From IMG/VR virus record IMGVR_UViG_2585427966_000002: a stretch of 54,288 nt of DNA. One strand, 5' to 3'. This DNA comes from a virus. Taxonomy: Duplodnaviria; Heunggongvirae; Uroviricota; Caudoviricetes. Both the position numbers and the translations under genes were made by a program. The notes beneath the pieces are model-generated. The model ran no database searches, had not been told where the DNA came from, and worked only from the letters and a program-made list of their open reading frames with translations. This document shows, piece by piece, positions 8,247 to 35,168 of the stretch. The stretch's first letter is position 1, and the number at the start of each line of letters is the position of its first letter.

Positions 8247-8501
8247 ATGAACCAGAAAACACTTGAAGATGTAATCAAAACTGTTCGCGTTTCTGTTGTG
8301 GCCGACGTTTGTGGTGTCAGCCAAAGAGCAATCTACAAATGGATGGATAACGGAAAATTGCCTCGCACAGAATATACCGGCGAAACAAATTACGCTGAAA
8401 AAATCGCTCATGCATCAAACGGATTATTTTCTGCCGATGTAATTTTAACTATTGGCAGAAATAAAACTACTACGAAAAAGCTGATGGGAGTTGATTCATG
8501 A
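8247..8501 (+). CDS. ydaS: Cro-like HTH protein YdaS (84 aa)
   Basis: Track ORF 8175-8501 trimmed to the ATG with RBS; HTH (VADVCGVSQRAIYKWMDNGKLP); divergent from racR. Confidence 0.7.
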   Translation: MNQKTLEDVIKTVRVSVVADVCGVSQRAIYKWMDNGKLPRTEYTGETNYAEKIAHASNGLFSADVILTIGRNKTTTKKLMGVDS

Positions 8502-8920: not shown

Positions 8921-8932
8921 GCAAAAGTTTCC

Positions 8933-14969: not shown

Positions 14970-16360
14970 CACTTCACCTCTTCAATCACCGTATCAAAGC
15001 ATTGCATCCCCACATCAGAAGCGCTAGCATCTTCATGTCCAAAGAAATATTTAGATAAAATTTTAACATCTTCTTTCTCTCTGGTGAAGATTATTCGTAC
15101 AGTAGAGCTTTTTTTTACTGGGGTAGGCAGCTTAGGTGTATATCGCCACTCATTTTTGTTTCTATTAGGGTTGGACCAGTTATTTTTTTTATCTTCTGGA
15201 GTTGATTGTGGGGTAATTTCAAATAAAGATTGAGCTTCATGTGACTGAGCTGACTTAAGTAATTTTTTCCCTTCTTCAAGATGCTCACCTTTCCACTGAT
15301 TGGTGAATCGAATAAAATGCATCATCCCTTCAATCATTTTATTTCGTACATCATTGTACAATGTAGAACTAAGATCGACACCTCGTTTCGTTGTTGTTAT
15401 TGGTAATTTTTCTGGGTTTTTACTGGTAAAGCGAACAACCCCAGAAATTGCTATAAATTGGGTATGAAACCTTGGTACATTAGCAAAGCCCCAACCTGTG
15501 AGATGTGTCTTATCACAATATAGAACAACGCGGTCATTGCAAATGACAGTCCATCCAGCATCATCAGAACTCCTTTTTTCTAAAACATCATCATTGTCAT
15601 CTTCTAAATTTTTATAGAAGCCAACAACTAAATCGATATCAACATCGTCTATTTTAGCTTTATATATGTATGGTTCTATTTTAGAATGATCAGTTATGAT
15701 GTTAATCGGATTATGTTCAACAACAACTCCATTTAATTCTATTTTAAATCCTTTTTGAATAATAAATGACAATGAGTGTTTTATCTGTAAAAAGAGATCA
15801 GTAAGATATGTGCTCTCATTAAATTTTTGTGCCACATTAGAATGGAGTTTTTTTATCTCTATAGTTGTGCCTGTTGGATTTTTGTTATCATAGTCACTCT
15901 CGTGCATCGGTATTTTCCAACCATCACCATCGATCCAATCAGGTGTTATATCTACAGTGAATGCGCCATCGGGATTATTCGATTGTATTGAGCAATCTCT
16001 ACCCATTTTAAAAATGGCTCTTTTCATACCAATACCATAGACGCCAACGGTGCCTTCATTTTCTTCTTCTTTTTGATGGGGTCGTCCCATTTTAAAAGCA
16101 TATTCTCGGAAGCTTTTAGGGATACCTCCGCAATTGTCTTCTATAATAAAGACATCTTTATTAATCGTAAGTTTCGCATAAAATCCTTCATATGGTTTTG
16201 AAGTTTTTTTTGTGTCTTTTATTGTACGTAAAGCCCCATCGACGCAGTTATCAAGCAGATCAAGTATGGCATCGTTTAAGTCGATATCTCGAGTTAGCAT
16301 ACTTACAAAAAATCTTTTACTAGGACTAAAGTCTGCTGTTGGAGTCGTGTTCTCAGTCAT
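14969..16360 (-). CDS. GHKL-family ATPase (Bergerat fold; MutL/MORC/Hsp90-like N-terminal domain), 463 aa
   Basis: N-box DLLDNCVDGA, G1 box IEDNCGGIP, G2 box GVYGIGMKRAIFKMG in the N-terminal ~130 aa; C-terminal ~300 aa unassigned. Confidence 0.8.
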   Translation of the reverse strand: MTENTTPTADFSPSKRFFVSMLTRDIDLNDAILDLLDNCVDGALRTIKDTKKTSKPYEGFYAKLTINKDVFIIEDNCGGIPKSFREYAFKMGRPHQKEEENEGTVGVYGIGMKRAIFKMGRDCSIQSNNPDGAFTVDITPDWIDGDGWKIPMHESDYDNKNPTGTTIEIKKLHSNVAQKFNESTYLTDLFLQIKHSLSFIIQKGFKIELNGVVVEHNPINIITDHSKIEPYIYKAKIDDVDIDLVVGFYKNLEDDNDDVLEKRSSDDAGWTVICNDRVVLYCDKTHLTGWGFANVPRFHTQFIAISGVVRFTSKNPEKLPITTTKRGVDLSSTLYNDVRNKMIEGMMHFIRFTNQWKGEHLEEGKKLLKSAQSHEAQSLFEITPQSTPEDKKNNWSNPNRNKNEWRYTPKLPTPVKKSSTVRIIFTREKEDVKILSKYFFGHEDASASDVGMQCFDTVIEEVK

Positions 16361-19332: not shown

Positions 19333-19761
19333 ATGGGTTTTCGTAGCGCATCAATTCTTACGTTGATTATTAGTGGGATTATTATCGGGTGCACTGATGC
19401 TGTATCGACAAATTATCATGACCGTACATCATATTACTCCGATAAAGCAATAGAGACACAGTATGTGAGTTCATCTGAACGTACTTCTGATGTTAGTGAG
19501 GATATCCGTCTGTATGCCCATCAAATCAAGAGCGCCATCGAAAAACAGTTCGGGGATGCGAGTAAGTATTCAGGAAAAGAGTGTACACTGAGAATGCATA
19601 TGGCCCCGAATGGCCTTCTACTGGAGGTTAAAAGAGAAAGTGGAGACCTCGATTTATGTCGTGAAGCGATGAATGCGATAAAGAATGCTGATATACCTGC
19701 CCCCCCTTCGCCGGAAGTATATAAAGTATTTCAAAATGGGGTGCTGGATTTTAAACCCTGA
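19333..19761 (+). CDS. Lipoprotein with TolA C-terminal (domain III)-like region, 142 aa
   Basis: Signal peptide with lipobox IIGC; C-terminus (YAHQIKSAIEKQF...CTLRMHMAPNGLLLEVK...PPSPEVYKVFQNGVLDFKP) resembles the E. coli TolA C-terminus as I recall it. Confidence 0.75.
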   Translation: MGFRSASILTLIISGIIIGCTDAVSTNYHDRTSYYSDKAIETQYVSSSERTSDVSEDIRLYAHQIKSAIEKQFGDASKYSGKECTLRMHMAPNGLLLEVKRESGDLDLCREAMNAIKNADIPAPPSPEVYKVFQNGVLDFKP

Positions 19762-19911: not shown

Positions 19912-20307
19912 GTGGGATTAAAGAAAATCGTTATGTTGACTTTTTGGGTCGGTTTTGTTGCGGGATGCACACCTTTACACCCTTCAGATTGCCACAAAAC
20001 TACTGCTACAGGTAGTTGCAGTTCAGGACGCTGGGATGATCAGGATGAATGGGGGGCGCAAGCGCGGGGAATCAGAGCTGCAATTAATGCCAAACTTGAT
20101 GAGCCGCATAACTGGAAAGGGAAAAAATGCAGGTTGCATATGGAATTCTCTCAGGATGGTACGGCGTTAAAAATATCTACCAGTAACGGTGATAAAGCCT
20201 ATTGCGAAGCGATAAAGTCCGCAGCTCATAAAGCCAAATTTCCGGCCTTCAACAATCCGGAAGTCTACAGAGATTTTCAGAAATCTGGCTTTGACATGCG
20301 AGGTTAG
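19912..20307 (+). CDS. Second lipoprotein with TolA C-terminal-like region, 131 aa (diverged paralogue)
   Basis: Lipobox VAGC; CRLHMEFSQDGTALKIS...AKFPAFNNPEVYRDFQKSGFDMRG parallels the preceding gene. Confidence 0.65.
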   Translation: MGLKKIVMLTFWVGFVAGCTPLHPSDCHKTTATGSCSSGRWDDQDEWGAQARGIRAAINAKLDEPHNWKGKKCRLHMEFSQDGTALKISTSNGDKAYCEAIKSAAHKAKFPAFNNPEVYRDFQKSGFDMRG

Positions 20308-21732: not shown

Positions 21733-21869
21733 AATCTTAACTACAATATGATTCATTTTGATGATTGTTTCATAAGGAACAGTGAAGTAAGATCTAAGAG
21801 GAGTTAAATTTTATACAGTATAATCATAATATTGCAGCAAGGTGGTTATAATTGAAAGAATATTTAGAT

Positions 21870-23327
21870 ATGAATACATCTCATGTAAGAGTTGTTACTC
21901 ATATGTGTGGGTTCCTGGTTTGGCTCTATAGTCTTTCAATGTTGCCACCAATGGTTGTAGCATTGTTTTATAAAGAAAAAAGCCTGTTCGTTTTCTTTAT
22001 AACTTTCGTTATATTTTTTTGCATTGGTGGCGGAGCGTGGTATACAACTAAGAAATCTGGCATTCAATTACGTACCCGTGATGGGTTTATTATAATTGTA
22101 ATGTTTTGGATTTTGTTTTCTGTTATTAGTGCATTCCCTTTATGGATTGACTCAGAACTTAATTTAACGTTCATTGATGCTCTGTTTGAAGGGGTTTCTG
22201 GAATAACAACAACAGGAGCAACTGTAATTGATGATGTTAGTTCATTACCTCGGGCATATTTGTACTATCGGTCACAGTTAAATTTTATAGGTGGTTTAGG
22301 AGTTATTGTTCTGGCGGTTGCTGTATTGCCATTATTGGGTATTGGTGGTGCAAAGCTTTATCAGTCAGAAATGCCGGGGCCATTTAAGGATGACAAACTC
22401 ACTCCCCGCCTGGCCGATACGTCACGGACACTGTGGATAACTTATTCTTTATTAGGTATTGCTTGTATTGTCTGTTATAGACTTGCAGGAATGCCTTTGT
22501 TTGATGCTATTTGTCACGGGATTTCCACAGTTTCGCTTGGTGGTTTCTCAACTCATAGCGAGAGTATCGGATATTTTAATAACTATTTGGTTGAGCTGGT
22601 GGCTGGTTCTTTTTCCCTGCTATCGGCTTTCAACTTCACTCTTTGGTATATTGTTATTAGCAGGAAAACGATAAAACCTTTAATCAGAGATATTGAACTT
22701 CGTTTCTTTCTGTTAATAGCCTTAGGGGTGATCATTGTTACCTCTTTCCAGGTCTGGCATATAGGTATGTATGACTTGCATGGAAGTTTTATTCATTCGT
22801 TTTTTCTTGCCAGCTCCATGCTCACTGATAATGGTTTAGCTACGCAGGATTATGCAAGTTGGCCCACGCACACGATAGTGTTTTTGCTGTTGTCAAGTTT
22901 CTTTGGGGGATGTATAGGTTCAACTTGTGGTGGAATTAAGTCACTTCGATTTCTTATACTTTTCAAACAAAGCAAACACGAGATAAATCAGCTTTCTCAT
23001 CCCAGAGCGTTGTTGAGTGTAAATGTAGGAGGGAAGATAGTTACAGATCGTGTAATGAGGTCTGTATGGAGTTTCTTTTTTCTTTATACTCTCTTCACGG
23101 TGTTTTTTATACTGGTGTTAAATGGTATGGGATATGATTTTCTTACATCATTTGCAACAGTGGCTGCATGTATTAATAATATGGGATTAGGTTTTGGGGC
23201 TACTGCATCGTCATTCGGAGTGCTTAATGACATTGCAAAATGTTTAATGTGCATAGCTATGATTCTTGGTCGCCTTGAAATTTATCCTGTTATTATATTG
23301 TTTTCAGGTTTTTTTTGGCGCTCCTAA
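21870..23327 (+). CDS. trkG: TrkG potassium uptake protein (485 aa)
   Basis: Multi-TM transporter matching remembered TrkG; AT-rich; track ORF 21852 trimmed to MNTSHVRV. Confidence 0.9.
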   Translation: MNTSHVRVVTHMCGFLVWLYSLSMLPPMVVALFYKEKSLFVFFITFVIFFCIGGGAWYTTKKSGIQLRTRDGFIIIVMFWILFSVISAFPLWIDSELNLTFIDALFEGVSGITTTGATVIDDVSSLPRAYLYYRSQLNFIGGLGVIVLAVAVLPLLGIGGAKLYQSEMPGPFKDDKLTPRLADTSRTLWITYSLLGIACIVCYRLAGMPLFDAICHGISTVSLGGFSTHSESIGYFNNYLVELVAGSFSLLSAFNFTLWYIVISRKTIKPLIRDIELRFFLLIALGVIIVTSFQVWHIGMYDLHGSFIHSFFLASSMLTDNGLATQDYASWPTHTIVFLLLSSFFGGCIGSTCGGIKSLRFLILFKQSKHEINQLSHPRALLSVNVGGKIVTDRVMRSVWSFFFLYTLFTVFFILVLNGMGYDFLTSFATVAACINNMGLGFGATASSFGVLNDIAKCLMCIAMILGRLEIYPVIILFSGFFWRS

Positions 23328-23464
23328 TATATGGCTGATTTATAATTGTGAGTTTAATATTATGTTGACTCACTCATTGATCCAATACCTAACTTTACCA
23401 GCAACCCCTCCGTCCCCAGTAGCACTGGCTGCTGGGGTGCGTTTTATTCATAAAGCAAGGCTGT

Positions 23465-24256
23465 ATGAGCGAGAAATTAAAGATAGTCTATCGCCCATTA
23501 CAAGAATTGTCACCGTATGCGCACAACGCCAGGACGCACAGCCCTGAGCAGGTGGCACAACTGGTAGAAAGTATTAAGCAATTCGGCTGGACTAATCCGG
23601 TGCTGATTGACGAAAAGGGCGAAATTATTGCGGGTCACGGTCGTGTTATGGCGGCTGAAATGCTCAAAATGGATTCTGTTCCGGTCATTGTTCTGTCTGG
23701 CCTGACGGATGAGCAGAAAAAGGCGTACCGCCTGGCAGATAATCGCCTGCCGATGAATGCTGGCTGGGATGAAGATCTGTTGCGGATGGAGCTGTCGGAC
23801 CTAATCAATGCTGATTTTGATGTCTCCCTGACAGGCTTCATCCCGACAGAAATTGATGAACTGTTGACGGATGTTTTGCCCGGTACAGGAAATGAGGAGG
23901 AGCCGTATACGACGAAAATTGATACGCCTGTTTATGAGCCGTCGGGCGGTAAACCGGATATCAGTGAACTGTACGACGATACGAAAACTCAGGAGCTGAT
24001 CAGCCGGATACGTTCGGCGTCCCTTGAGCCTGATATTGAGAAATTCCTCCTGTGTGCGGCAGAACGTCACACGGTGTTTAATTTCAGCAGAATTGCGGAC
24101 TATTACGCTCACGCCCCCTCTGAAATTCAGTGTTTTTTCGAGGAGTCGGCGCTGGTGATCATTGATTATCAGCAGGCTATTGAAAATGGATTTGTCCGGA
24201 TGACGCAGCGCATGGTGGAGATCATGCATGGTGGTGAGGAGGAGGAATATGCGTGA
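23465..24256 (+). CDS. ynaK: ParB-like nuclease domain protein (263 aa)
   Basis: N-terminal ParB/Srx-like region (YRPLQELSPYAHNARTHSPEQV...IIAGHGRVMAA); acidic C-terminus. The ynaK name is from memory of K-12, where I recall only an N-terminal fragment. Confidence 0.75.
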   Translation: MSEKLKIVYRPLQELSPYAHNARTHSPEQVAQLVESIKQFGWTNPVLIDEKGEIIAGHGRVMAAEMLKMDSVPVIVLSGLTDEQKKAYRLADNRLPMNAGWDEDLLRMELSDLINADFDVSLTGFIPTEIDELLTDVLPGTGNEEEPYTTKIDTPVYEPSGGKPDISELYDDTKTQELISRIRSASLEPDIEKFLLCAAERHTVFNFSRIADYYAHAPSEIQCFFEESALVIIDYQQAIENGFVRMTQRMVEIMHGGEEEEYA

Positions 24257-25181
24257 TGATTTTTGCGCCTTTATTCTGACTCACGGGCGACCGGACAAAG
24301 TTCTGACTTACCGGACGTTGCGTCGTGCTGGCTATACCGGGAAAATTTTTATCGTTGTTGATGATGAAGATAAGACACGGAATCAGTACATGGCTGAATT
24401 TGGTGAACAGGTGCTGGTGTTTTCCAAAGCCGATATCGCCAGTCGTTTTGACGAAGCCGATAATTTCTGTGACCGCCGCTCAATTTTTTACGCCCGTAAT
24501 GCCTGTTTCGACCTGGCAAAACTGGTCGGGTGTAAATACTTCATTCAGCTCGATGATGATTATCACGAGTTCCAGTTTCGGGTGGATCGCAACTATGACC
24601 AGGCCTATTTTCCGATAAGGAAACTGGATGCGATCCTTTCTGAAATGCTGGCGTACTACGAATCAATACCTGCTCTTTCCATCGCTATGTCGCAGGGCGG
24701 GGATTTTCTTGGTGACAATGGCGGCCATGCTTCGTGGGTGAAACGCAAGGCAATGAACAGCTTTATCTGTTCGGTTGATCGACCGTTCTCATTCATGGGG
24801 CGCATTAACGAGGATGTGAATACGTACACGAATCTCGGTCGCTGTGGTGAATTGTTTATGACGATCGGTGCTGTCCAGTTAGGGCAGAAACAGACGCAGA
24901 AAAACAGCGGCGGAATGACCGAGCTGTATCTGGATTCCGGAACCTACGTTAAAAGTTTTTACTCCGTCATGTATGCGCCGTCGTGCGTAAAAATCTCACT
25001 GATGGGTGCCAGCCATAAACGCATTCACCATCAGGTCACCTGGAACAACGCTGCAGTAAAAATCCTTCACGAAAAATACAGGAAGAAGACACCCTGCATA
25101 TCAATGGGGGTGACAAATGATTCCGTATTCGAAAGTCGAGTCTCTGGCAGCGTGCCGGATGACTGCACAACAAATCGCTGA
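24249..25181 (+). CDS. ydaY: Hypothetical protein with GT-A-like features (310 aa; YdaY-like)
   Basis: FIVVDDEDK and QLDDDY (DXD-like) motifs; glycosyltransferase assignment is weak; ydaY name from memory. Confidence 0.55.
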   Translation: MRDDFCAFILTHGRPDKVLTYRTLRRAGYTGKIFIVVDDEDKTRNQYMAEFGEQVLVFSKADIASRFDEADNFCDRRSIFYARNACFDLAKLVGCKYFIQLDDDYHEFQFRVDRNYDQAYFPIRKLDAILSEMLAYYESIPALSIAMSQGGDFLGDNGGHASWVKRKAMNSFICSVDRPFSFMGRINEDVNTYTNLGRCGELFMTIGAVQLGQKQTQKNSGGMTELYLDSGTYVKSFYSVMYAPSCVKISLMGASHKRIHHQVTWNNAAVKILHEKYRKKTPCISMGVTNDSVFESRVSGSVPDDCTTNR

Positions 25182-25368
25182 CGTTCTGGATGTTGATCTG
25201 AACCGACTGAAAGAAAATCGGGAAGCAATGACAGATTTTTATGCGGCCATCCGTAAGGGCAGAGCGAAAGGTGAAGCCGAGTTACGAGCGGCATTGTTTA
25301 AGCTTGCCAGAAAAGGGGATGCCTTTGCTCTGCGCGAACTACTCAGGGTGGATAAAAATCAGGACTAA
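25159..25368 (+). CDS. Small HTH-like protein (about 69 aa; start uncertain)
   Basis: Track ORF 25117-25368; MTAQQIADVLDVDL suggests HTH; overlaps the preceding gene. Confidence 0.35.
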   Translation: MTAQQIADVLDVDLNRLKENREAMTDFYAAIRKGRAKGEAELRAALFKLARKGDAFALRELLRVDKNQD

Positions 25369-25371
25369 CTG

Positions 25372-26466
25372 ATGAGCAGACCGGACTGGGGGGCGTTGCA
25401 GCAGGAGTATATTGCTGAATACACCCGCTCCGGTATATCTCCGGTGGCATGGTGTGAAGCAAGGGGACTGAATTACGCAACAGCCCGTCGTTACATCAAA
25501 AAAACTCCGAAAAATGCGCAGACAGAAATGTGCAAAACTGCGCAAAAAAGTGCGCAGAAAAAATCTGCGCAGACTGCACAAAAGCGGAACGAAAAATCTC
25601 AGGAAAAAAAGCCAGTATTCGATGCGGGCCTGAATGAGGGCGACGCGGAGGAATTTTCGTTCTGTCCCGATGAATTCGGCATTTCTGACCAGCAGGCTAA
25701 GTTTGCGATGCTTGTTGCTCAGGGTAAAAAGCCGACAGAGGCGTACCGACTAGCCGGTTATGAGGGGCAAGGTGCGACAGCTAACAGCAACGCCAGTCGT
25801 ATGCTTAGAAATGCCAGGGTTTTTCGCGCTATCAGCTACTTCCGCAATCAGTACCAGAAACGCTATACCGCAGACCTGGATTTACTAGTGAGTCAGTTGA
25901 TGGCTATTGTCCTGGCCGACCCCAATCAGCTTGCACAATTTCGCCGTGTTAACTGCCGTTATTGCTGGGGCGAGAATCATCTCTACCAGTGGCGCGATAT
26001 AGCAGAATTCGACAAGGCAGCGGCGCAGGCTTCCAGAGATGGCAAACCCGAACCGGAATATGGAGGCCTCGGCTTTGTTGATAACGCCATACCCAATCCG
26101 GACTGCCCGAAGTGCTGCGGTGAGGGAACGGGACAGCTTTATATGGCTGATACCACTCTGCTTGATGGGGATGCGCGGCAATTATATGCAGGGGCAAAAT
26201 TCGGAAAATTCGGCGTTGAGATCCTGCTGGAGGATAAGGCTGCCGCCCGGCGTGAATTGTTGCGTTTGTTTTCTGCTGGCGGGGCTTTATGTGCAGATAA
26301 ACGGCTACAGGAACTGGAAATTGAACGGCGCAGAATGGAAAACCAGAAGCTGCGCAAAGAGATCGAAACGGTGGAAGATAATGAACATCCCCAGCCTGTG
26401 GCGATCAATATTAATGTGGTTGATGCCAGAGTAAGGAGTGATGAAGATGATCTCTCCGACGCTTAA
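25372..26466 (+). CDS. Terminase small subunit (364 aa)
   Basis: Position before the terminase large subunit; N-terminal HTH-like region; family assigned from memory. Confidence 0.6.
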   Translation: MSRPDWGALQQEYIAEYTRSGISPVAWCEARGLNYATARRYIKKTPKNAQTEMCKTAQKSAQKKSAQTAQKRNEKSQEKKPVFDAGLNEGDAEEFSFCPDEFGISDQQAKFAMLVAQGKKPTEAYRLAGYEGQGATANSNASRMLRNARVFRAISYFRNQYQKRYTADLDLLVSQLMAIVLADPNQLAQFRRVNCRYCWGENHLYQWRDIAEFDKAAAQASRDGKPEPEYGGLGFVDNAIPNPDCPKCCGEGTGQLYMADTTLLDGDARQLYAGAKFGKFGVEILLEDKAAARRELLRLFSAGGALCADKRLQELEIERRRMENQKLRKEIETVEDNEHPQPVAININVVDARVRSDEDDLSDA

Positions 26467-27748
26467 TGTGCCTCAGGCGCGATTTCTTTCAATGCCCCAT
26501 AAATTTAAAGCCTATATTGCTGGTTTTGGCTCGGGCAAAACATGGGTTGGGTGTGGCGGCATATGCAAGGGGATTTGGGAGCATCCAGGTATAAATCAGG
26601 GATATTTTGCGCCAACGTATCCCCAAATTCGCGATATTTTTTACCCTACAGTGGAAGAAGTTGCTGCTGACTGGGGATTGAACGTAAAAATTAATGAGGG
26701 AAATAAAGAGGTTCACTTTTATTACGGACGCCAGTATCGGGGAACCACTATCTGCAGATCGATGGAGAAGCCACAAACGATCGTCGGTTTCAAAATTGGT
26801 AATGCGTTGGTGGATGAACTGGACATTTTGCCGAAGGAAAAAGCCAGAACGGCGTGGCGCAAGATAATTGCACGTATGCGTTATAAGATTGATGGACTTC
26901 GCAACGGTATTGACGTTACAACCACGCCGGAAGGATTCAAATTTGTCTACGAGCAGTTTGTTAAAGCCGTGCGTGAAAAAACAGAGCTGGCCTCACTGTA
27001 TGGTCTGGTGCAGGCATCTACTTTCGATAATGAAAAGAACCTGCCAGCAGATTACATTCCTTCGCTTCTTGAATCATACCCTCCAGAGCTGATTAAAGCC
27101 TATCTTCGAGGACAGTTTACTAACCTGACAAGTGGTACTGTTTACCATCAGTTTGACCGGAAACTGAATAATTGCGAAGAAGTGGAGCAGCCAGGGGAGC
27201 CGATTTATATTGGGATGGATTTTAACGTTGGAAAGATGGCGGGAATCGTCCATGTGCTGCGTTTGGGGCTTCCATGTGCGGTAACTGAAATCATCAATGC
27301 CTACGATACGCCGGATATGATCCGCATCATTAAAGAACGCTTCTGGCTGTATGATGGGAATGATTACCGGAAAGTGAGGGAAATTTATATTTATCCAGAT
27401 GCTTCCGGGGATTCCAGAAAATCAAGTAACGCAAGTACGACGGATATAGCCCAGCTTAAGCAGGCTGGTTTTAACGTTGTGGTGAACAGCTCGAACCCGC
27501 CAGTAAAAGATCGCGTTAACTCAATGAATGCAATGTTCTGCAATGCCAATGGTGAGCGTCGCTATAAAGTTAATGTGAAGCGTTGCCCGTTATATGCCGA
27601 ATCTCTGGAGCAACAGGTCTGGGATGAGAAGGGGGAGCCTGATAAAAAATCTGGCAATGATCACCCGAATGATGCAGGAGGTTATTTCATCGTTAAGCAA
27701 TTCCCTATTGTCAAACCGACCGGAAGAGTCACATCACTTCGGATTTAA
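26438..27748 (+). CDS. Terminase large subunit (436 aa)
   Basis: Walker A-like AGFGSGKTW near the N-terminus; acidic nuclease-like C-terminal region. Confidence 0.8.
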   Translation: MMKMISPTLNVPQARFLSMPHKFKAYIAGFGSGKTWVGCGGICKGIWEHPGINQGYFAPTYPQIRDIFYPTVEEVAADWGLNVKINEGNKEVHFYYGRQYRGTTICRSMEKPQTIVGFKIGNALVDELDILPKEKARTAWRKIIARMRYKIDGLRNGIDVTTTPEGFKFVYEQFVKAVREKTELASLYGLVQASTFDNEKNLPADYIPSLLESYPPELIKAYLRGQFTNLTSGTVYHQFDRKLNNCEEVEQPGEPIYIGMDFNVGKMAGIVHVLRLGLPCAVTEIINAYDTPDMIRIIKERFWLYDGNDYRKVREIYIYPDASGDSRKSSNASTTDIAQLKQAGFNVVVNSSNPPVKDRVNSMNAMFCNANGERRYKVNVKRCPLYAESLEQQVWDEKGEPDKKSGNDHPNDAGGYFIVKQFPIVKPTGRVTSLRI

Positions 27749-27750
27749 TT

Positions 27751-29157
27751 ATGGCTGATATATCAACACCCAACCTCGACTATAACGATATGCTGGAGGC
27801 GTGGGATATTAACGACGCACTGATGGGCGGTACGCTTGAAATGCGCAGGCAGGGGGAAAATTATCTCCCAAAATGGCCTAACGAAGATGAAGACGCTTAT
27901 AAAAAACGCCTGTCTGTGGCTACGCTACTTCCTGTGTATGAAGAAAGCATCAAGCAAAATATTGGGCGCATATTTGCAGAGCCGACAGTATTGAGTGAGG
28001 AAACGCCGGCAAAAATCAGGGAATATGCAGAAAATATCGACATGGAGGGGAGCCGACTGGATGTGTGGGCCCAGCAATTTTTCAGCCTCGCATTTCAGTA
28101 TGGTGTGGCACATGCGCTGGTGGACTATCCACGAACGGATATGAAAGAGATTCGTACAAAAGCCGATGAAAACGCGACCGGTGGTCGTCCGTACGTTACG
28201 ATGCTGAATCCACGCCAGGTTATTGGATGGAAATCGAAAGTTGAAAAAGGGAAAGTTGTTCTCACTGATTTGCGTATAAAAGAGGTCATCATTATTGATG
28301 GTGATGATTTCGGGCAGAAGAAGGTGGAGCAGATCCGCCATATTATGCCCCGTCGAGTTGAAATTTATCGACGTAGCGAAGGCACTAATGGCGAATCTGT
28401 CTGGACGCTTCATGAGTCATGGAATACCAGCCGTGATGATATTCCTCTGGTAACACTGTACACGAAGAAAACAGGATTTATGCGTGGTACACCGCCATTG
28501 CTTAATCTTGGCTTGCTGAATATCAAGCACTGGCAAAGCCAGAGCGAGCAGGACAATATTCTTCATGTTACCCGCGTTCCATTGCTGGTGGCCTACGGGC
28601 TGGACAGGAATGAAGAACTGACGGTTGGTGCATCCACCGCTACGATTTTTGAGGACAGAACAAAAAATGGCCTCGAATATGTTGAACATAGTGGCGCAGC
28701 GATAGAATCTGGCGAAACATCACTTGAGAAGCTGGAAAATCAGATGCGTCATGCCGGCGCTAAACTTCTGCGTGCTGAAAATACATCCACCAAATCTGTT
28801 GATCAGACTAATGAAGAGCGAATGCAGGAAAACTCGCCGCTTTATACAATGGCGAACTCCCTCGAAGATGCCCTCGATAATATTCTCCAGATAATGGCGG
28901 AATGGATCGGAGAGAGTTGCGGTGGCAATGTGGATGTGCGCACTGAACTGGATGTATCTGCCCAGGTGTTTGACTCATCCTCCGCGCTGGCTGTTCAGTC
29001 ATTGCGTCAGGGCGGTGATATACGTCAGATTGATGCGGTTCGGGTGTTGCAGGCGTTGAAATTTATCGATCAGGATTCCCGTCCAGAGGAAGTGATCGAT
29101 GAATTAAAAAATCAGAGTGTAATGCTGATGGAAATCAATGATGCAAACCGTGAATGA
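27751..29157 (+). CDS. Portal protein (468 aa)
   Basis: Size and position immediately after the terminase large subunit. Confidence 0.65.
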   Translation: MADISTPNLDYNDMLEAWDINDALMGGTLEMRRQGENYLPKWPNEDEDAYKKRLSVATLLPVYEESIKQNIGRIFAEPTVLSEETPAKIREYAENIDMEGSRLDVWAQQFFSLAFQYGVAHALVDYPRTDMKEIRTKADENATGGRPYVTMLNPRQVIGWKSKVEKGKVVLTDLRIKEVIIIDGDDFGQKKVEQIRHIMPRRVEIYRRSEGTNGESVWTLHESWNTSRDDIPLVTLYTKKTGFMRGTPPLLNLGLLNIKHWQSQSEQDNILHVTRVPLLVAYGLDRNEELTVGASTATIFEDRTKNGLEYVEHSGAAIESGETSLEKLENQMRHAGAKLLRAENTSTKSVDQTNEERMQENSPLYTMANSLEDALDNILQIMAEWIGESCGGNVDVRTELDVSAQVFDSSSALAVQSLRQGGDIRQIDAVRVLQALKFIDQDSRPEEVIDELKNQSVMLMEINDANRE

Positions 29158-30253
29158 ACGGCTGCGTGATGAATCAATTGCTCATGCAGTCTGGATATCC
29201 CGCTATAGCACTGGCGTGGCTGCCAGAATGGTGAAAATACTGAATGACAGCGATGCGGAACTTACTGCTCGCCTGCTGATAGCACTGGACAGCCTCGATC
29301 CAGGTAATTTTACCGTTAAGCGCCTGGAGTCACTTCTGGCGAGCGTCAGAAAGGTTAACCGCACTGCTATTAACAGCATGTTTACCAGTCTCTCCGGAGA
29401 GCTGAACGAGCTGGCAATTTATGAGGCTGGTTATCAGTTAAGTCTGTTTGATTCTATGCTACCTGATTTTGTTGCTGATGTTCACCCTCTGGTTGGTATC
29501 TCTCCTGATGCACTTTATGCCGCTGCAATGGCGCGACCATTCCAGGGACGACTGCTCAGTGAGTGGGCCTCAGATCTTGAGGCGGATCGGCTCAGACGCA
29601 TAACAAATACAGTGCGTCAGGGTTTTTTGCTGGGGGATACCAATGAGCAGATCGCAAGAAAAATTCGGGGACATGTCAGTAAGGGATTTCAGGATGGTGC
29701 ATTGCAGATGAGCCGGGCTAATGCGGCCAGCATTGCAAAAACAGCGGTTGGACATCTTGCTGCTACTGCCCGTGAGAGTTTTGCCAGCGCGAATAATGAT
29801 TTGATTAAGGGTAAGCAATGGTTATCAACGCTTGATAATCGTACTACGCCACAATGTCGAATCAGGGATCGCCTCAAATATACGCTGAATAATAAACCTG
29901 TAGGTCACAGCGTGCCTTATTTGCAGGGGCCGGGAAAAATTCATTTCTGCTGCCGCTCAACGGAAACGTTCATTCTGAAATCAGCGAAGGAACTGGGTAT
30001 TGATGTTCGCGATATTTCCCCGGCTGAGCGGGCCAGCATGGATGGCGTGGTGGCCGGAGATACAACCTACAGGGAATGGTTTTTGCGTCAGCCTTACACC
30101 AGACAAAAACAGATTGTGGGGGAAACCCGAGCAAAGCTGATTCGGGATGGTGGTATGTCGCCAGATGAATTTTACACCGATAAAGGCGAATGGCTGACGC
30201 TGAAGCAGCTCCGTGAGCGTGATGCACAGGTATTCAGAAAAGCAGGGATTTAA
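29138..30253 (+). CDS. Head morphogenesis protein (371 aa)
   Basis: Position after the portal; overlapping start. Confidence 0.55.
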   Translation: MMQTVNERLRDESIAHAVWISRYSTGVAARMVKILNDSDAELTARLLIALDSLDPGNFTVKRLESLLASVRKVNRTAINSMFTSLSGELNELAIYEAGYQLSLFDSMLPDFVADVHPLVGISPDALYAAAMARPFQGRLLSEWASDLEADRLRRITNTVRQGFLLGDTNEQIARKIRGHVSKGFQDGALQMSRANAASIAKTAVGHLAATARESFASANNDLIKGKQWLSTLDNRTTPQCRIRDRLKYTLNNKPVGHSVPYLQGPGKIHFCCRSTETFILKSAKELGIDVRDISPAERASMDGVVAGDTTYREWFLRQPYTRQKQIVGETRAKLIRDGGMSPDEFYTDKGEWLTLKQLRERDAQVFRKAGI

Positions 30254-30273
30254 ATAAATCATTTATTACAACA

Positions 30274-30297
30274 GGCTACCTTCGGGTGGCCTTTTTT
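30274..30297 (+). terminator. Hairpin terminator (ggctacc-ttcg-ggtggcc-tttttt)
   Basis: 7-bp stem with one G-U pair, tetraloop and T-tract read directly. Confidence 0.5.
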
Positions 30298-30357
30298 ATT
30301 GCTGCGATCCGGATGGTGAGCAGCGTAACTGTCGGAAGACTTAAACCAGGTACTAAT

Positions 30358-31122
30358 ATGAAACTGAAAACGGTCGAGATTAACGGAAAACAATACGCAG
30401 AAATTGATACTGCTGGCCTGCCAGTTTATGTGCACGACGATGGTAAAGAAATTGGCTTCGATGCACCGCTGGCGACAAAAAAAATTACAGAGCTTAATGG
30501 CGAGGCAAAAAATCATCGCCTGGCTAAAGAAGCTGCAGAGGAAAAACTGGCTAAGTTTGCCGCTATCGAAGACCCGAAGAAGGCGATCGAGGCACTGGAA
30601 ATGCTGTCAAAAATCGACCAGAAAAAGCTGCTCGATGCGGGACAGGTTGACCAGGTTAAGGCAGAAATTACGAAAAATTTTCAGCAGCAATTAGATGAAG
30701 AAAAGCAACGCTCTCAGATGCTGGAGAAGCAGCTTTACGATTCTATGATTGGCGGTAGTTTTGCGGGTTCAAAATATATTGCCGATAAAATTGCGATCCC
30801 GGCAGATTTATTACAAGCCCGCTTCGGGCAGGCATTCAAAGTGGAAGAAGGGAGGATCGTTGCTTATGACGCTTCCGGCAACAAAATTTATTCCCGCGCG
30901 AAGCCTGGCGAACTGGCGCAGTTTGATGAGGCGCTGGAGTTCCTTGTCGAAAATTACCCTCAGAAAGACTACATCCTGAAAGCCAGTGGCAACAATGGCG
31001 GCGGCTCCCGTCCGACACAGCATGATATTGGTCAGAAAACGATGAAACGCTCTGCTTTTGATGCACTGGATGTTGCAGGTAAGCAAAACGCATTGAAAGA
31101 CGGTATCACAATCGTTGATTAA
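30358..31122 (+). CDS. Putative scaffolding protein (254 aa, coiled-coil/charged)
   Basis: Track ORF 30286 trimmed to MKLKTVEING; charged coiled-coil-like composition; position before the capsid gene. Confidence 0.5.
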   Translation: MKLKTVEINGKQYAEIDTAGLPVYVHDDGKEIGFDAPLATKKITELNGEAKNHRLAKEAAEEKLAKFAAIEDPKKAIEALEMLSKIDQKKLLDAGQVDQVKAEITKNFQQQLDEEKQRSQMLEKQLYDSMIGGSFAGSKYIADKIAIPADLLQARFGQAFKVEEGRIVAYDASGNKIYSRAKPGELAQFDEALEFLVENYPQKDYILKASGNNGGGSRPTQHDIGQKTMKRSAFDALDVAGKQNALKDGITIVD

Positions 31123-31220
31123 CACATTTGTCAGCTTCCGGATGGGAGCTGGTGTCAGGGCTGGATAGCTCATTACTCCATCTATTCACAATTACGCAAA
31201 TTTTTAAGGAATATTTAATT

Positions 31221-32360
31221 ATGGCTGGAAATACCCTGACCGGGTTGATCCCGACTATTTATACCGCCCTGGATGTTGTATCCCGTGAGCAGGTAGGTTT
31301 TATCCCTGCGGTAGCAAAAAACGCAAAAGCTGACGCCGCAGCAAAAGATCAGACGGTAACCGCGCCAGTTGCGCCTGAGGCGAAAACCGAAGATATCGTA
31401 CCGGGGCCGTCAGCTCCGAATACCGGTGATCAAAATATTGGCACTGTTGATGTAAAAATTACTAAATCCAAAATGGCACCGGTTAAATGGAATGGTGAAG
31501 AACAACTGGCTCTTGGCCCTTCAGGGACTTACAACACCATTCTGGCTGATCAGTTCAAGCAGGCTTTTCGCGCCCTTGCAAACGAGGTTGAGGCTGATCT
31601 TGGTGCGTTGTATTTCGGTGCTTCCCGCGCCGTGGGAACCGCAGGGACAACGCCGTTTGGTGTTAAAGATGATCTTTCTGATGCTGCTCTGGCTCGTCAG
31701 GTTCTGGAGGATAACGGCGCACCGACAACCGATCTGCAGATGGTGCTTGGCTCCACTGCCATTGCTAATTTGCGCGGAAAACAGTCTGTATTGTTTAAAG
31801 TGAATGAATCCGGCACTGAACAGCTACTGCGTGAGGGCGTGTTGGGGCGTCTGGAGGGATTCAATATTCACAGTTCGGCAGGTGTGAAACGAGCGCCAAA
31901 GGTTGCTGCAACTGGTTATCTCGTGAATGGAGAGAAAAAAGAAGGCGATGTTCTTATTTCCATTGATACTGGTTCGGGGAGTATTTCTGCAGGTCAGATT
32001 GTTACGTTCGCTGGTGATCCGAATCAGTATGTTGTGGCAGCAGCGACCAGCAATCTGATTACTCTTGCAGCGCCCGGACTGCGTCAGGATCTGGCCGATG
32101 ATACTGCCATCACAGTTGTTGGGGCCTTTACGGCAAATATGGCGTTTGATCGCAACGCGTTTCTGCTGGCATCCCGTACTCCGGCAATGCCGGAAGGTGG
32201 CGATAATGCTGATGATGTAATGAATGTTACGGACCCGATTTCAGGGATTACGTTCCAGATTGCACTGTATCGTCAGTATCGCCAGGTGCGCTATGAAGTT
32301 GGACTGGCATGGGGTGTTTCATCAGTGAAGCCGGCACATGGTTGTCTGATTCTTGGTTAA
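31221..32360 (+). CDS. Putative major capsid protein (379 aa)
   Basis: Track ORF 31128 trimmed to the ATG (MAGNTLTGL); size and position. Confidence 0.6.
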   Translation: MAGNTLTGLIPTIYTALDVVSREQVGFIPAVAKNAKADAAAKDQTVTAPVAPEAKTEDIVPGPSAPNTGDQNIGTVDVKITKSKMAPVKWNGEEQLALGPSGTYNTILADQFKQAFRALANEVEADLGALYFGASRAVGTAGTTPFGVKDDLSDAALARQVLEDNGAPTTDLQMVLGSTAIANLRGKQSVLFKVNESGTEQLLREGVLGRLEGFNIHSSAGVKRAPKVAATGYLVNGEKKEGDVLISIDTGSGSISAGQIVTFAGDPNQYVVAAATSNLITLAAPGLRQDLADDTAITVVGAFTANMAFDRNAFLLASRTPAMPEGGDNADDVMNVTDPISGITFQIALYRQYRQVRYEVGLAWGVSSVKPAHGCLILG

Positions 32361-32370
32361 ACATTCAAAC

Positions 32371-32390
32371 GGGGCTTCGGCCCCATTTTT
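32371..32390 (+). terminator. Hairpin terminator (ggggc-ttcg-gcccc-attttt)
   Basis: Read directly downstream of the capsid gene. Confidence 0.5.
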
Positions 32391-32402
32391 AATGGGGGGC
32401 AT

Positions 32403-32579
32403 ATGGCCGGATTAACTAAAGAGCAAAGAGCACAGCGTGAAGCCGCACAAAAAACGCAAATTGAGTTAGTGGTTATGGTGACCGATTATCAGATGTTTCC
32501 CGGCGCACCAACTATCGCTAATGTTCATCCTGATGAAGTTGACAACTGGAAGGCTATGGGCTGGAAAACTCAGGAGTAA
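32403..32579 (+). CDS. Hypothetical small protein (58 aa)
   Basis: My reading (MAGLTKEQRAQREAAQKTQIELVVMV...); short, so uncertain. Confidence 0.3.
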   Translation: MAGLTKEQRAQREAAQKTQIELVVMVTDYQMFPGAPTIANVHPDEVDNWKAMGWKTQE

Positions 32580-32582
32580 CAC

Positions 32583-32978
32583 ATGATCACTTACGTGACC
32601 TGTGATGACGTTGATAATGCGTTTGGGAACGCCTGGACGAGTGAGAACGCTAAAAATAAAGCTGTTTTAATGGCTAATGCCTGGCTTAATGGCTTCAACC
32701 TGAAAATTAACCCATCCCGTATTCCGGAAGAGGTAAAACTTGCGGGAGCATATGCAGCCAGAATTGCCTCATTCGGTAAGTTGTTTCAGCAGAAAAATGA
32801 TTCTGGCGTTGTTATCAGTAAAGCCGTGTCGGCTGACGGGGTCAGTGTATCGAAATCATTTTCTGAGTTGCCAGCAAACAGCACTGCATTGCTTGAACCC
32901 GATTTACAGCTTGCGATAGCACTGCTGAAACCGTACGGACTTAGTCGCTCACAAGTCAGGGTTGTGAGGGGGGGATAA
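32583..32978 (+). CDS. Head-tail connector / head completion protein (131 aa)
   Basis: Position and size; overlapping gene series typical of head-tail joining genes. Confidence 0.5.
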   Translation: MITYVTCDDVDNAFGNAWTSENAKNKAVLMANAWLNGFNLKINPSRIPEEVKLAGAYAARIASFGKLFQQKNDSGVVISKAVSADGVSVSKSFSELPANSTALLEPDLQLAIALLKPYGLSRSQVRVVRGG

Positions 32979-33361
32979 TGGGGCTTCGTGAAGAGATTCA
33001 GTCAGAGGTTGCCGCTGCTTTTGATGAGGATTTAGCGGACGCCGTGAGTGATTTTTCTGGTTCTTACGTTACGCACCGGCACTGGGATCCTGTGACGGAA
33101 ACTGGCGGCGAATCCACCGCAATCTATACCGGGCGAGGCGTGTTGACACGTTATAAGCTGGGCAGAATTGATGGGATTAATATTTTGCATGGTGACCTTA
33201 AATTAACCGCTCTGGTATGCGAGGTTACGGATAAACCAGCTGTCGACCATATTATTGAGATTTATGATCCTGTATCAAGGCAGTTACAACGATACGAGGT
33301 AATTACAGCAAGTGTAGATCCTTCCGCATCAGTTTACTCTATCCAGTTAAGGAGAGCGTAA
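32978..33361 (+). CDS. Head-tail joining protein (127 aa)
   Basis: Position; ATG overlaps upstream stop. Confidence 0.5.
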   Translation: MGLREEIQSEVAAAFDEDLADAVSDFSGSYVTHRHWDPVTETGGESTAIYTGRGVLTRYKLGRIDGINILHGDLKLTALVCEVTDKPAVDHIIEIYDPVSRQLQRYEVITASVDPSASVYSIQLRRA

Positions 33362-33742
33362 ATGGCAAAGGCATGGGATATAGAACCGTCAATATTTGCC
33401 GGGATGATTGAGGAAGATGTAGGGCTGAAGATTCGCTACATCGCTATTCAGATTCTTACTGCTATTGATATTGCTGCTCCGGTTGATACCGGACGTTTCA
33501 GAAATAACAACCTGGTGTCGTTACAGCATCCCGATTTTGGTATATCTGATAACGTGGATCCGAACGGTACGATTGCTGTTCAGCGTGGGATCGGGGTTAT
33601 TTCGAAAGCTGCAAATTACGGAGTTATTTATATCCAGAATAACCTTCCTTATGCAGAGGCTCTTGAAAACGGTCATTCACAACAAGCGCCAACTGGCGTG
33701 TATGCCAACGCTTTTCATGGTGTTTTACAGGCTTACAAATGA
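33362..33742 (+). CDS. Tail completion / neck protein (126 aa)
   Basis: Position. Confidence 0.45.
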   Translation: MAKAWDIEPSIFAGMIEEDVGLKIRYIAIQILTAIDIAAPVDTGRFRNNNLVSLQHPDFGISDNVDPNGTIAVQRGIGVISKAANYGVIYIQNNLPYAEALENGHSQQAPTGVYANAFHGVLQAYK

Positions 33743-34131
33743 CGTTTACTGAAATCAGAAATACGGTTATTTCCAGAATGACGGCACAGACGATTATTGA
33801 TGGAAAAGACGTATTGTATCCGAACGCGCCAACGTTCGATCCTTCCGGTAAGTTAATCTGGGCGCGGTTAAGTAATATTCCCGGGCAGGCTGGAGTTAAT
33901 GAAATTGGCGCGGGGCCGATTGTTTATCGCACGGGGATAATCATTATTCAGTTATTTGTCCCCGCAGGTTCTGGTTCAAAACTCATTACTGAGACAGCCG
34001 ATAAATTGCGGGAACTGTTTGAGTTTCAGGATGACGATCGTCTCAGTTACCAGGCTGTTTCCTCAATAGCCGTTGGCGAAAAGAATGGCTGGTTCCAGCT
34101 TAATCTTCAAATTCCATATCGCGCGCTCTAG
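33739..34131 (+). CDS. Tail terminator-like protein (130 aa)
   Basis: Position; ATGA overlap with upstream gene. Confidence 0.45.
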   Translation: MTFTEIRNTVISRMTAQTIIDGKDVLYPNAPTFDPSGKLIWARLSNIPGQAGVNEIGAGPIVYRTGIIIIQLFVPAGSGSKLITETADKLRELFEFQDDDRLSYQAVSSIAVGEKNGWFQLNLQIPYRAL

Positions 34132-34157
34132 CGCAATTAATGACATAGGAGGCTCCT

Positions 34158-35120: not shown

Positions 35121-35168
35121 TTTTCCGTTATTCCTCCTGTGGTACTGCCCTACAGGGGGACGCATTGA

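Follow-up and report, generated by a model that had tools for sequence, protein, structure and literature searches.

The stretch of DNA analysed here (the window; 54,288 nucleotides, IMG/VR record IMGVR_UViG_2585427966_000002) is a complete Rac-type lambdoid prophage of Escherichia coli. Just upstream of its terminase genes are two overlapping genes, an intact ynaK, encoding a ParB-like protein, and a gene encoding a putative glycosyltransferase with a GT-A fold. The original prediction, made from the sequence of the window, had placed overlapping open reading frames (ORFs) of 263 and 310 amino acids (aa) here, and both were found as described. The features of the pair, in window coordinates, are as follows:

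23465 to 24256, plus strand: ynaK, intact, 263 aa, pI 4.5; putative ParB-like partner subunit of the transferase.
23465 to 23869, plus strand: ParB-CTPase/sulfiredoxin (Srx) nucleotide-binding domain and helical extension, YnaK residues 1-135, from Pfam, AlphaFold2 (AF2) and Foldseek.
23870 to 23905, plus strand: first part of an acidic, variable linker, YnaK residues 136-147; AF2 predicted local distance difference test (pLDDT) below 50 over residues 136-169.
23906 to 24253, plus strand: putative transferase-partner domain, YnaK residues 148-263, helical, with an acidic tail.
24236 to 24256, plus strand: coupling junction, with a sequence like a ribosome-binding site, GAGGAGGAGGAA, at 24236-24247 just 5' of the transferase ATG (24249), and the ynaK TGA at 24254-24256.
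24249 to 25181, plus strand: TAGT-family GT-A glycosyltransferase, 310 aa, annotated by PGAP as 'GREB1-related protein' (WP_001204037.1) or hypothetical protein.
24249 to 24893, plus strand: GT-A catalytic core, transferase residues 1-215, from alignment invariants, AF2 and Foldseek.
24894 to 25103, plus strand: basic C-terminal region, transferase residues 216-285, pI 9.7, highly conserved and mostly past the Pfam model.
25104 to 25181, plus strand: 25-residue tail present in the Escherichia/Shigella version only, homologues elsewhere stopping near residue 285-295; the tail overlaps the next ORF.

The transferase ORF runs from 24228 to 25181 on the plus strand and encodes 317 aa when read from its first ATG, and 310 aa when started at the ATG at 24249. 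The latter start was preferred because the homologues begin at MRDDF and PGAP annotates the 310-aa form. With this start, the two genes share 8 nt.

The 310-aa protein matched the Pfam family TAGT (PF20691, the TET-associated glycosyltransferases) over positions 4-205 of the 205-position model, with an E-value of 8.4e-35 and a score of 121 bits (cut-off 27.5), and matched phrog_842 with an E-value of 1.2e-103. In an alignment of 24 homologues, down to 59% identity, the residues R14, D38, D41, D102-D104, N187-E188-D189 and H260-H261 are invariant. R14 lies in the context THGRPD, D38 and D41 lie in VVDDEDK, and D102-D104 form the DxD metal/nucleotide-sugar motif. The two motifs quoted in the original prediction are both present, FIVVDDEDK at residues 34-42 (24348-24374) and QLDDDY at residues 100-105 (24546-24563). 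The AF2 model was confident over most of residues 1-215, with pLDDT below 50 at residues 70-72 and 152-168, and the best Foldseek matches of the model were all GT-A enzymes, SpsA first (1qg8, E-value of 1.8e-4), with SunS/ThuS, ColGalT1 and glycogenin. A profile search of the PDB sequences with the transferase returned nothing real. On the strength of the Pfam score, the invariant R...DDD...ED signature and the predicted GT-A fold, the protein is assigned as a bona fide TAGT, and the assignment is strong. It had earlier been described as weak, which did not hold; the structure prediction that had been proposed as a check was run and returned a transferase fold.

The region C-terminal to the core, residues 216-285, contains further invariants (TQ, GGMT, GTYxK, R258, H260-H261, W265 and K279). 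It is a candidate acceptor-, DNA- or partner-binding element, in a part of the protein where the AF2 model is of low confidence. The family is large, with at least 8000 sequences at an E-value of 1e-5 or below in one search; against 1.84 billion representatives, it comprised 1324 clusters at 50% identity, 493 of them at an E-value of 1e-30 or below. In some members, the TAGT is joined to a further TAGT domain, to a SAM-methyltransferase or sulfotransferase, or to a P-loop (kinase-like) domain at the N-terminus (P0248, P0250, P0287, P0284, P0267, P0268, P0271, P0306 and P0319). In the fusions that were checked (loci L173-L177), the partner gene was still found 5' and the terminase 3'. A fusion of ParB to TAGT, of the Rosetta stone type, was sought among 142 representatives and none was found.

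The ParB/Srx fold that had been predicted for the N-terminal domain of the 263-aa protein was recovered by several approaches, and the domain matches of both proteins lie far above chance level. YnaK matched Pfam ParB_N (PF02195) with an E-value of 1.2e-6 and 28.9 bits (cut-off 26.3), and phrog_620 with an E-value of 8.5e-91. AF2 modelled residues 1-130 with block pLDDT values mostly of 73-93 and one block of 62, and the best Foldseek matches were CTP- or CDP-bound ParB (7bnr, 6sdk), Noc, PadC and KorB, with E-values of about 1e-6. The domain contains the motifs NARTH (21-25), GWTNP (41-45), AGHGR (56-60), RLADN (89-93) and SLTGF (121-125), and both the Box II arginine (R60, in AGHGR) and the Box III asparagine (N93, in RLADN) are present. 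Furthermore, residues 3-141 matched phrog_498, 'DNA methyltransferase' (E-value of 1.2e-50), and residues 10-144 matched the PADLOC model MTase_II PDLC03229 (E-value of 2e-38). By profile comparison, DNA methyltransferases from phages and prophages have an N-terminal ParB module that is homologous to residues 3-144 of YnaK.

The C-terminal domain of YnaK carries the motifs YTxKIxTPxYEP (148-159, invariant), AAERHTVFNF (198-207) and FEESALVIID (225-234). It has no Pfam family, and no relative among PDB sequences was found, the profile search returning only spurious designed armadillo repeats.

YnaK does not show the features of a canonical partition ParB of the ParABS type: no helix-turn-helix (HTH) domain was detected with Pfam, and neither a ParA nor a parS-like repeat was found. 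Its TIGR00180 score of 38.5 is below the cut-off of 58.45, and most of its ParB, Noc and PadC fold matches align over about 140-160 columns, which is the span of the N-terminal domain. No ParA is present in the prophage annotation, and a search for a parS-like repeat 5' of ynaK and near the terminase found only the terminator hairpin of trkG.

The conservation of the pair was assessed in 80 loci from bacterial and archaeal assemblies, sampled at one genome per species (GTDB species). The loci span Proteobacteria, Bacteroidota, Firmicutes, Kiritimatiellia, Verrucomicrobia, Acidobacteriota, Ignavibacteria, Saccharibacteria and archaeal metagenome-assembled genomes (MAGs), and outside Enterobacteriaceae the transferases share 40-60% identity with that of E. 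coli. A YnaK homologue was present in 78 of the 80 loci, the remaining two being cut by contig ends, and it was directly adjacent to the transferase, on its upstream side, in 75. The two genes overlap in 68 of the 74 pairs from other species, most often by 11 nt (32 pairs) or 8 nt (24 pairs). When the flanks, 7 kb to either side, were clustered all against all, no further gene proved to be conserved. On these comparisons, the pair is an ancient two-gene module. That its two proteins work together, as had been proposed from the window, is strongly supported by the near-obligate adjacency and the translational coupling seen across phyla.

The first long ORF downstream of the pair encodes the large terminase subunit (TerL) in about 40 of 54 loci, with members of the Terminase_6N, Terminase_3 and GpA families, and TerL_ATPase-type terminases follow the pair in metagenomic contigs; at least four unrelated terminase families were found after the pair. 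Carriers differ in their terminase and capsid families, so that the acceptor is unlikely to be one particular virion or terminase protein. Among the cultured carriers are the haloarchaeal virus HHTV-2, Lactobacillus phage phi jlb1, Nocardia phage NTR1 and the Lactobacillus delbrueckii phages c5, LL-Ku, phiLdb, Ld17 and PMBT4. In the cos phage c5 (31.8 kb), the pair is ORF1-ORF2, right after the cos site and before the terminase. In 191-kb Vibrio phages, a short partner and a TAGT are found among primase, exonuclease and helicase genes. In the first 50 kb of Vibrio phage pv27, which were read for a hydroxymethylase, an ordinary thymidylate synthase adjoins dihydrofolate reductase. The region from trkG to TerL had at least a partial match in 1650 of 5426 complete E. 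coli genomes, and 760 genomes matched at least 80% of it.

Two observations on individual carriers are recorded here. The match to the transferase is split in two or partial in related L. delbrueckii phages (c5, L178 90-1713; phiLdb, H49/H50; Ld17, H54/H55; LL-Ku, H58/H59), and the module may be decaying in some of these lineages, in which case it would be accessory and not essential. One metagenomic phage carrying the module (L003 15837-16894, L004 8659-9716) has two Glycos_transf_2 genes after the capsid gene, which may be a separate virion-glycosylation system.

The make-up of the partner protein was compared across the 75 adjacent pairs. The C-terminal domain, of roughly 110 aa, is present in 73 of the partners and the ParB domain in 61. 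Residues Y148, P155, Y157, L195, R201, A211, E226 and D234 are conserved in all 73 partner domains, while among the partners having a ParB domain G57 is present in 62/62, N93 in 61/62 and R60 in 52/62. A profile of the C-terminal domain retrieved 5573 proteins, and the best 120 of these are nearly all stand-alone proteins of 125-135 aa without a Pfam domain. Each stand-alone partner that was examined had a TAGT gene immediately 3', and all 80 viral loci fetched with the profile contain a TAGT. Because the C-terminal domain is constant, also occurs alone and always lies beside a TAGT, YnaK is best described, from sequence, as a ParB-CTPase domain fused to a dedicated TAGT-partner domain.

The partners without a ParB domain start with MKQxNLFG. 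In the viral loci, an N-terminal Q-x-x-[L/M/I]-F was found in 58 of 68 ParB-less partners versus none of 12 ParB-containing partners; among 1209 other ORFs in these loci, just 2 have it. Counted by cluster, a motif of this type was present in 30/35 (80% identity), 11/15 (70%) and 7/10 (60%). The Q, the L or M and the F are fixed and the rest is variable (QINLF, QASLF, QFDLF, QTTLF, QLNMF and others). YnaK itself has no such motif and has the ParB domain in its place. The consensus for binding to the bacterial beta sliding clamp is QL[S/D]LF or QxxLF, with positions 1, 4 and 5 mattering for binding (PMC12309361), and the N-terminal peptide of the ParB-less partners fits this motif in sequence.

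A phage beta-clamp homologue was found beside the pair in loci L142 and L162 (Pfam DNA_pol3_beta above the cut-off) and, as a weak match, in L145. No other was found in the 178 loci examined, and hence none in ParB-containing loci; weaker matches to the clamp hidden Markov model (HMM) lie 2-3 kb from the pair in L184 and L235. A rule by which a beta-clamp gene always replaces the ParB domain was considered and rejected, as a clamp gene adjoins only a few ParB-less loci. Since the other ParB-less loci are without a clamp gene, it is the peptide that is the general feature. Either N-terminal module could thus serve to tether the partner-transferase complex to a protein ring on DNA, ParB-type and NTP-gated in one case and the replicative clamp in the other. 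Separately, the L142 locus (5460-9156, from a Paludibacteraceae MAG) has two partner-TAGT pairs in tandem, with a separate short partner for each TAGT, the beta sliding clamp homologue 3' and a GIY-YIG/NUMOD3 endonuclease 5'.

These data also bear on whether the two genes might be unrelated neighbours, with YnaK a partition protein or a ParB binding pac or cos, and the transferase a surface-glycan (seroconversion-type) enzyme or a decaying moron gene. Databases do name YnaK 'partition protein', its gene adjoins cos/terminase, and prophage GT-A enzymes such as TarP modify cell-wall polymers. However, the partner domain occurs only beside TAGT genes, translational coupling holds in 68 of 74 species, and the transferase gene is intact, with invariant catalytic residues. 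The same pair is found in Gram-negatives, in Gram-positives and in a haloarchaeal virus, whose envelopes differ, and the missing ParA, HTH domain and parS-like repeat argue against a partition role. No signal peptide or transmembrane segment was noticed on reading the sequence, for which no predictor was run. We give this explanation very little credence.

The features around the pair in the prophage are as follows:

23414 to 23437, plus strand: terminator-like hairpin after trkG, with arms CCCCAGTAGC and GCTGCTGGGG followed by TGCGTTTTAT.
25117 to 25368, plus strand: small ORF resembling the small terminase subunit (TerS), 83 aa, starting within the 3' end of the transferase gene.
25372 to 26466, plus strand: TerS (Terminase_2), packaging gene after the module.
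26438 to 27748, plus strand: TerL (Terminase_6N/6C), packaging gene after the module.

The pair therefore lies directly 5' of the terminase region, in agreement with the original prediction. The gene order of the prophage is recET, racR, replication genes, Q-like genes, lysis genes, trkG, the ynaK/transferase pair, and head and tail genes, with intR at the left end; the same type of prophage adjoins ttcA in E. coli chromosomes sharing the trkG-to-terminase region. On inspection, the interval between the trkG hairpin and ynaK contained no sigma-70-like or consensus promoter. The pair is the first after the late activator in phi jlb1, and the first after cos in c5. Late, Q-dependent expression together with the packaging genes is likely.

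Further observations were made on these neighbours. The potassium-transporter gene trkG (21852-23437), the classic Rac cargo, lies inside the late operon, with the lysis genes on one side and the ynaK module on the other, and is provided with a strong terminator hairpin of its own. The 83-aa ORF matches the middle of the small-terminase family phrog_309 (E-value of 8e-23); its overlap with the tail of the transferase may be a recombination scar, or the ORF may encode a second TerS-like DNA-binding subunit. Ahead of the lysis genes, 19333-19761 and 19912-20307 encode two small proteins in succession, each with a TolA C-terminal domain (Pfam E-values of 2e-23 and 1e-14), and these may act in the exclusion of Tol-dependent phages or colicins.

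From the above, the pair is proposed to be a two-subunit, late-expressed DNA glycosyltransferase. The 310-aa GT-A enzyme would move a sugar from a nucleotide-sugar donor, and the C-terminal domain of YnaK would bind or activate it. The ParB-CTPase domain of YnaK, acting as an NTP-gated clamp or adaptor, would hold the complex on DNA; in other phages, the QxxLF peptide, binding the host or phage beta sliding clamp, would take the place of the ParB domain. Made from the late transcript just before the terminase, the complex would decorate the concatemeric progeny DNA before or during packaging, and the sugar-coated genome, once injected, would resist nucleases in the next host. The family assignment, the intact catalytic signature, the obligate and translationally coupled pairing, the two kinds of N-terminal module and the placement ahead of the terminase were observed; we infer that the two proteins bind each other, that the acceptor is DNA, that the complex behaves as a clamp, that it is expressed late and that it protects from restriction. 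That the pair is a clamp-tethered DNA glycosyltransferase acting on phage DNA is, in our judgement, an evenly balanced proposition.

The original prediction had suggested that the pair may modify phage DNA to counter restriction. Several lines of evidence favour DNA as the acceptor. The characterised relatives of the transferase glycosylate DNA bases (the T2/T6 enzyme, the TET-associated GT-A enzymes and the base-J glucosyltransferase, JGT), the ParB module is common to DNA methyltransferases, and the alternative module is a peptide like those that bind the clamp. There are precedents for both arrangements, in that the T4 alpha-glucosyltransferase rides the gp45 clamp and some phage thymine dioxygenases need ParB-like activators. 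DNA methyltransferases neighbour several of the loci, with unfused N6_N4 methyltransferases upstream of the module in some, and the pair has a replication-gene setting in the Vibrio phages. The variable terminase and capsid families point in the same direction, since they argue against a specific virion-protein acceptor. Genes that could supply or tailor a sugar donor were found near the pair, namely a UDP-galactopyranose mutase (L141 3340-4527) and a cytidylyltransferase-like protein (L162 7855-8298 and L164 1478-1888); together with the TAGT fusions, they argue for real glycan chemistry. A radical-SAM enzyme is encoded just 5' of the ParB gene in L173 (80-1042).

A number of findings weigh against DNA glycosylation by a clamp-tethered complex. 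No TET/JBP protein, ThyA-like hydroxymethylase or alpha- or beta-glucosyltransferase was found in the prophage (PGAP annotation of 1800-47800 and Pfam scans), nor was a dCMP hydroxymethylase, and no hydroxyl-acceptor enzyme is annotated in phage c5, which carries the pair in 31.8 kb. Likewise, no TET/JBP or hydroxymethyl-pyrimidine synthesis gene is conserved within 7 kb on either side in the 80 loci. Every DNA-modifying TAGT/GT-A enzyme characterised to date uses a hydroxymethyl-pyrimidine acceptor (5-hydroxymethylcytosine, its glucosylated form or 5-hydroxymethyluracil), and with no acceptor-making enzyme here, DNA glycosylation would need an unprecedented acceptor chemistry. As regards the clamp, about 16% of the partner ParB domains are without the Box II arginine, mutations of the NTP site in the ParB-assisted 5mYOX system did not abolish function (PMC13229309), an adjacent beta-clamp gene is present in only a minority of the ParB-less loci, and YnaK is acidic (pI 4.5) with no HTH family detected in Pfam or among its fold matches. 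In addition, GREB1, which has a TAGT-type domain, glycosylates a protein (PMC7968844). A more specific proposal is that the module, held on DNA by the ParB-type or the beta clamp, glycosylates canonical, non-hydroxymethylated DNA, for example at an exocyclic amine or another position of an ordinary base, which would be a DNA modification new to chemistry; we regard it as somewhat doubtful.

The prophage does carry a C5 DNA cytosine methyltransferase (12861 to 14012, plus strand), in a low-GC island (32-36% GC, 12861-16360) that also encodes, on the opposite strand, a Methyltransf_35 'putative O-methyltransferase' (13980 to 14972) and a GHKL-type ATPase (14969 to 16360). The island was considered as a source of acceptor, through conversion of 5-methylcytosine to 5-hydroxymethylcytosine (5hmC), and rejected, as it has no dioxygenase, is of low GC content and is missing from other carriers. 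PADLOC recognised only the methyltransferase in the island, which may be restriction-modification or defence cargo.

The GREB1 precedent raises the alternative that the acceptor is not DNA and that the transferase modifies a protein, either its own partner, for example at YTxKIxTPxYEP in the predicted disordered linker, or another one. GREB1, with its TAGT-type domain, O-GlcNAcylates the estrogen receptor ERalpha, the self-glucosylating glycogenin-type GT-A enzymes are among the fold matches, and no hydroxylated base is available. The partner is also the only protein that always co-occurs with the transferase, and Y148, [T/S]149, P155 and Y157 are invariant or nearly so in a region with pLDDT below 50. 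An invariant linear motif is, however, equally expected of a docking peptide, and protein glycosylation leaves unexplained both the N-termini of the partners (the methyltransferase-shared ParB domain or the clamp peptide) and the replication-gene context in Vibrio phages with the adjacent DNA methyltransferases. We consider protein glycosylation unlikely.

The acceptor might instead be a small signalling or precursor nucleotide, an RNA 2'-OH, or a host-installed DNA mark or hydroxylated lesion, with a counter-defence or metabolic role for the module. The identity of 40-60% between the E. coli enzyme and those of Firmicutes and archaeal viruses implies that the acceptor is universal, and there is no phage-made acceptor base; one variant has an N-terminal P-loop domain, and one locus has the radical-SAM enzyme upstream. 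Nevertheless, the late position before the terminase would be atypical for counter-defence genes, which are usually early, the alternation of clamp peptide and ParB domain points to a DNA-bound complex, and PADLOC made no defence-system assignment for the pair beyond the methyltransferase-type ParB domain. This alternative is judged distinctly improbable, and a DNA-directed, clamp-tethered glycosyltransferase remains our preferred reading of the pair.

The original prediction had equated the two genes with ynaK and ydaY, truncated in the K-12 Rac remnant. This was correct for ynaK, which in K-12 is the 5' part of the ParB gene, and incorrect for ydaY, which is not a transferase remnant but a gene of the tail region. 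The K-12 ynaK (87 aa; L002 4378-4641) matches 23465-23718 of the window, whereas the gene is intact here, with 263 codons, as had been supposed. The K-12 ydaY matches 35279-35630, between the tail tube and tape measure genes, and PGAP agrees in full-length prophages. The K-12 deletion is 11.56 kb (23719-35278), with end points at 23718/23719 and 35278/35279, and joins nt 254 of ynaK to the ydaY region. It removed two thirds of ynaK, the whole transferase gene, and the terminase, portal, capsid and head-tail genes. Many E. coli proteins in the databases are fragments of ynaK or of the transferase fused to pieces of Lom, terminase or tail fibre, which suggests recurrent deletions in this region. 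The truncated 87-aa K-12 YnaK, a bare ParB-domain fragment, raised the minimum inhibitory concentration of six antibiotics in a 2026 overexpression screen (PMC12924614); this effect has no evident tie to the intact module.

The annotation of both genes is misleading. PGAP treats ynaK as a pseudogene ('missing C-terminus') and annotates just its first 258 nt (23465-23722), despite the intact ORF of 263 codons. The call was seen in L001 and L008 (21666-21923), E. coli genomes that are 100% identical to the window over the 6-kb query, and was probably made because the truncated K-12 protein is the reference. The name 'beta-glucosyl-HMC-alpha-glucosyltransferase', copied onto the transferase in PHROG/pharokka style, is a misnomer and cannot describe its activity here. 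The labels 'partition protein' and 'GREB1-related' mislead in the same way.

To our knowledge, all DNA sugar modifications understood so far start from a hydroxymethylated pyrimidine made by a dedicated phage enzyme. If DNA is modified by the pair, the acceptor chemistry would have to be new, or a known one would have to be reached in a new way, and ordinary temperate coliphages would carry hypermodified DNA that sequencing and restriction mapping have overlooked. Were the acceptor canonical DNA, about one in seven of the complete E. coli genomes would have a lambdoid prophage with this modification, and tailed viruses of archaea and of many phyla of bacteria would carry it too. Modification of DNA by the pair would also add to the recently recognised cases in which a ParB-CTPase protein assists a DNA-modifying enzyme, and it suggests a general principle by which DNA-encircling clamps, ParB-type or beta, deliver DNA-decorating enzymes. 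The pair bears on a question of 2024-2026, what the 'solitary' TAGT/GT-A genes do, and can be tested in E. coli, with K-12 as a natural null.

Earlier papers note in passing that GT-A genes occur together with ParB-like genes and terminases (PMC8256090; bioRxiv 10.1101/2023.12.21.572611), and the idea that ParB proteins steer modification enzymes during packaging is that of Iyer et al. (2013), as relayed in PMC8256090 and PMC13229309. Among the papers available to our literature search, there was no study analysing the module, the partner domain or the clamp-peptide alternative. A 'solitary TAGT' was reported in 288 of 753 phages and flagged as unexplained (PMC13216743), and roughly 65% of glycosyltransferase contigs were left unexplained in another study (bioRxiv 10.1101/2023.12.21.572611). 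The present module belongs to both of these unexplained sets.

Among characterised systems, the T2/T6 beta-glucosyl-HMC-alpha-glucosyltransferases are relatives of the E. coli transferase. The T6 enzyme is not known to need a partner protein. The T2/T6 enzymes have the Pfam family PF20691, the GT-A fold and the DxD-type catalytic signature in common with the transferase (PMC13216743). However, they add a second glucose to alpha-glucosyl-5hmC and need a dCMP hydroxymethylase and an alpha-glucosyltransferase, both absent here. The T-even enzymes were not retrieved by tblastn at an E-value of 1e-10 or below, which places the E. coli transferase in a distant subfamily.

Phage GT-A enzymes have been shown to glycosylate 5hmC in DNA (PMC8256090; bioRxiv 10.1101/2023.12.21.572611), and the signature R...DDD...ED(Y/F) is common to these enzymes and the trypanosome JGT (bioRxiv 10.1101/2023.12.21.572611). 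The TET/5mYOX-associated GT-A enzymes and JGT thus resemble the E. coli transferase in family and in the R...DDD...ED active-site motif. The TET/5mYOX-associated enzymes are encoded beside a C5-methyltransferase and TET, or a thymidylate-synthase-like hydroxymethylase, neither of which belongs to this module; they differ further in that this module has an obligate partner domain and a terminase-proximal position.

As with the genes of ParB-assisted DNA-modifying enzymes, the transferase gene has an adjacent cognate ParB-like gene without a DNA-binding domain. DpdA/DpdB is a further ParB-assisted pair of this kind. Some phage thymine dioxygenases need a ParB-like activator on double-stranded DNA, as in 5mYOX176/ParB176, and the cognate pairs are specific (PMC13229309). 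The likeness, which is drawn from description only, is that an enzyme is found beside a ParB-like protein made up of a nucleotide-binding and a C-terminal domain, in which no DNA-binding domain is obvious; the enzyme is a dioxygenase there and a glycosyltransferase here. Unlike in the ParB176 system, the C-terminal domain here also occurs alone or with a clamp-binding-like peptide.

ParB-CTPase domains fused to DNA methyltransferases (PF02195 with PF01555, N6/N4) form a phage-enriched class that is present in prophages (PMC12704722). Their N-terminal ParB module is homologous to YnaK residues 3-144. In these proteins, the catalytic domain is covalently attached, whereas here the ParB domain is on an adaptor domain and the catalytic subunit is separate and translationally coupled. 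The T4 alpha-glucosyltransferase binds the gp45 sliding clamp, an interaction that is not the main determinant of the modification level (PMC13216743). As a clamp-riding DNA glycosyltransferase, it parallels the QxxLF-type partners and the adjacent beta-clamp genes, but its fold is GT-B, its sequence is unrelated, and it contacts the clamp itself, with no partner protein in between. GREB1 is of the same glycosyltransferase family as the E. coli protein, which PGAP names after it; it is a large cytoplasmic animal protein that O-GlcNAcylates ERalpha (PMC7968844), with no ParB-like partner reported. What is new in the present module relative to these systems, as read from sequence, is a TAGT enzyme that lacks the family's known acceptor pathway and has an obligate, previously undescribed partner domain, presumably assisted by a ParB domain or by the beta clamp.

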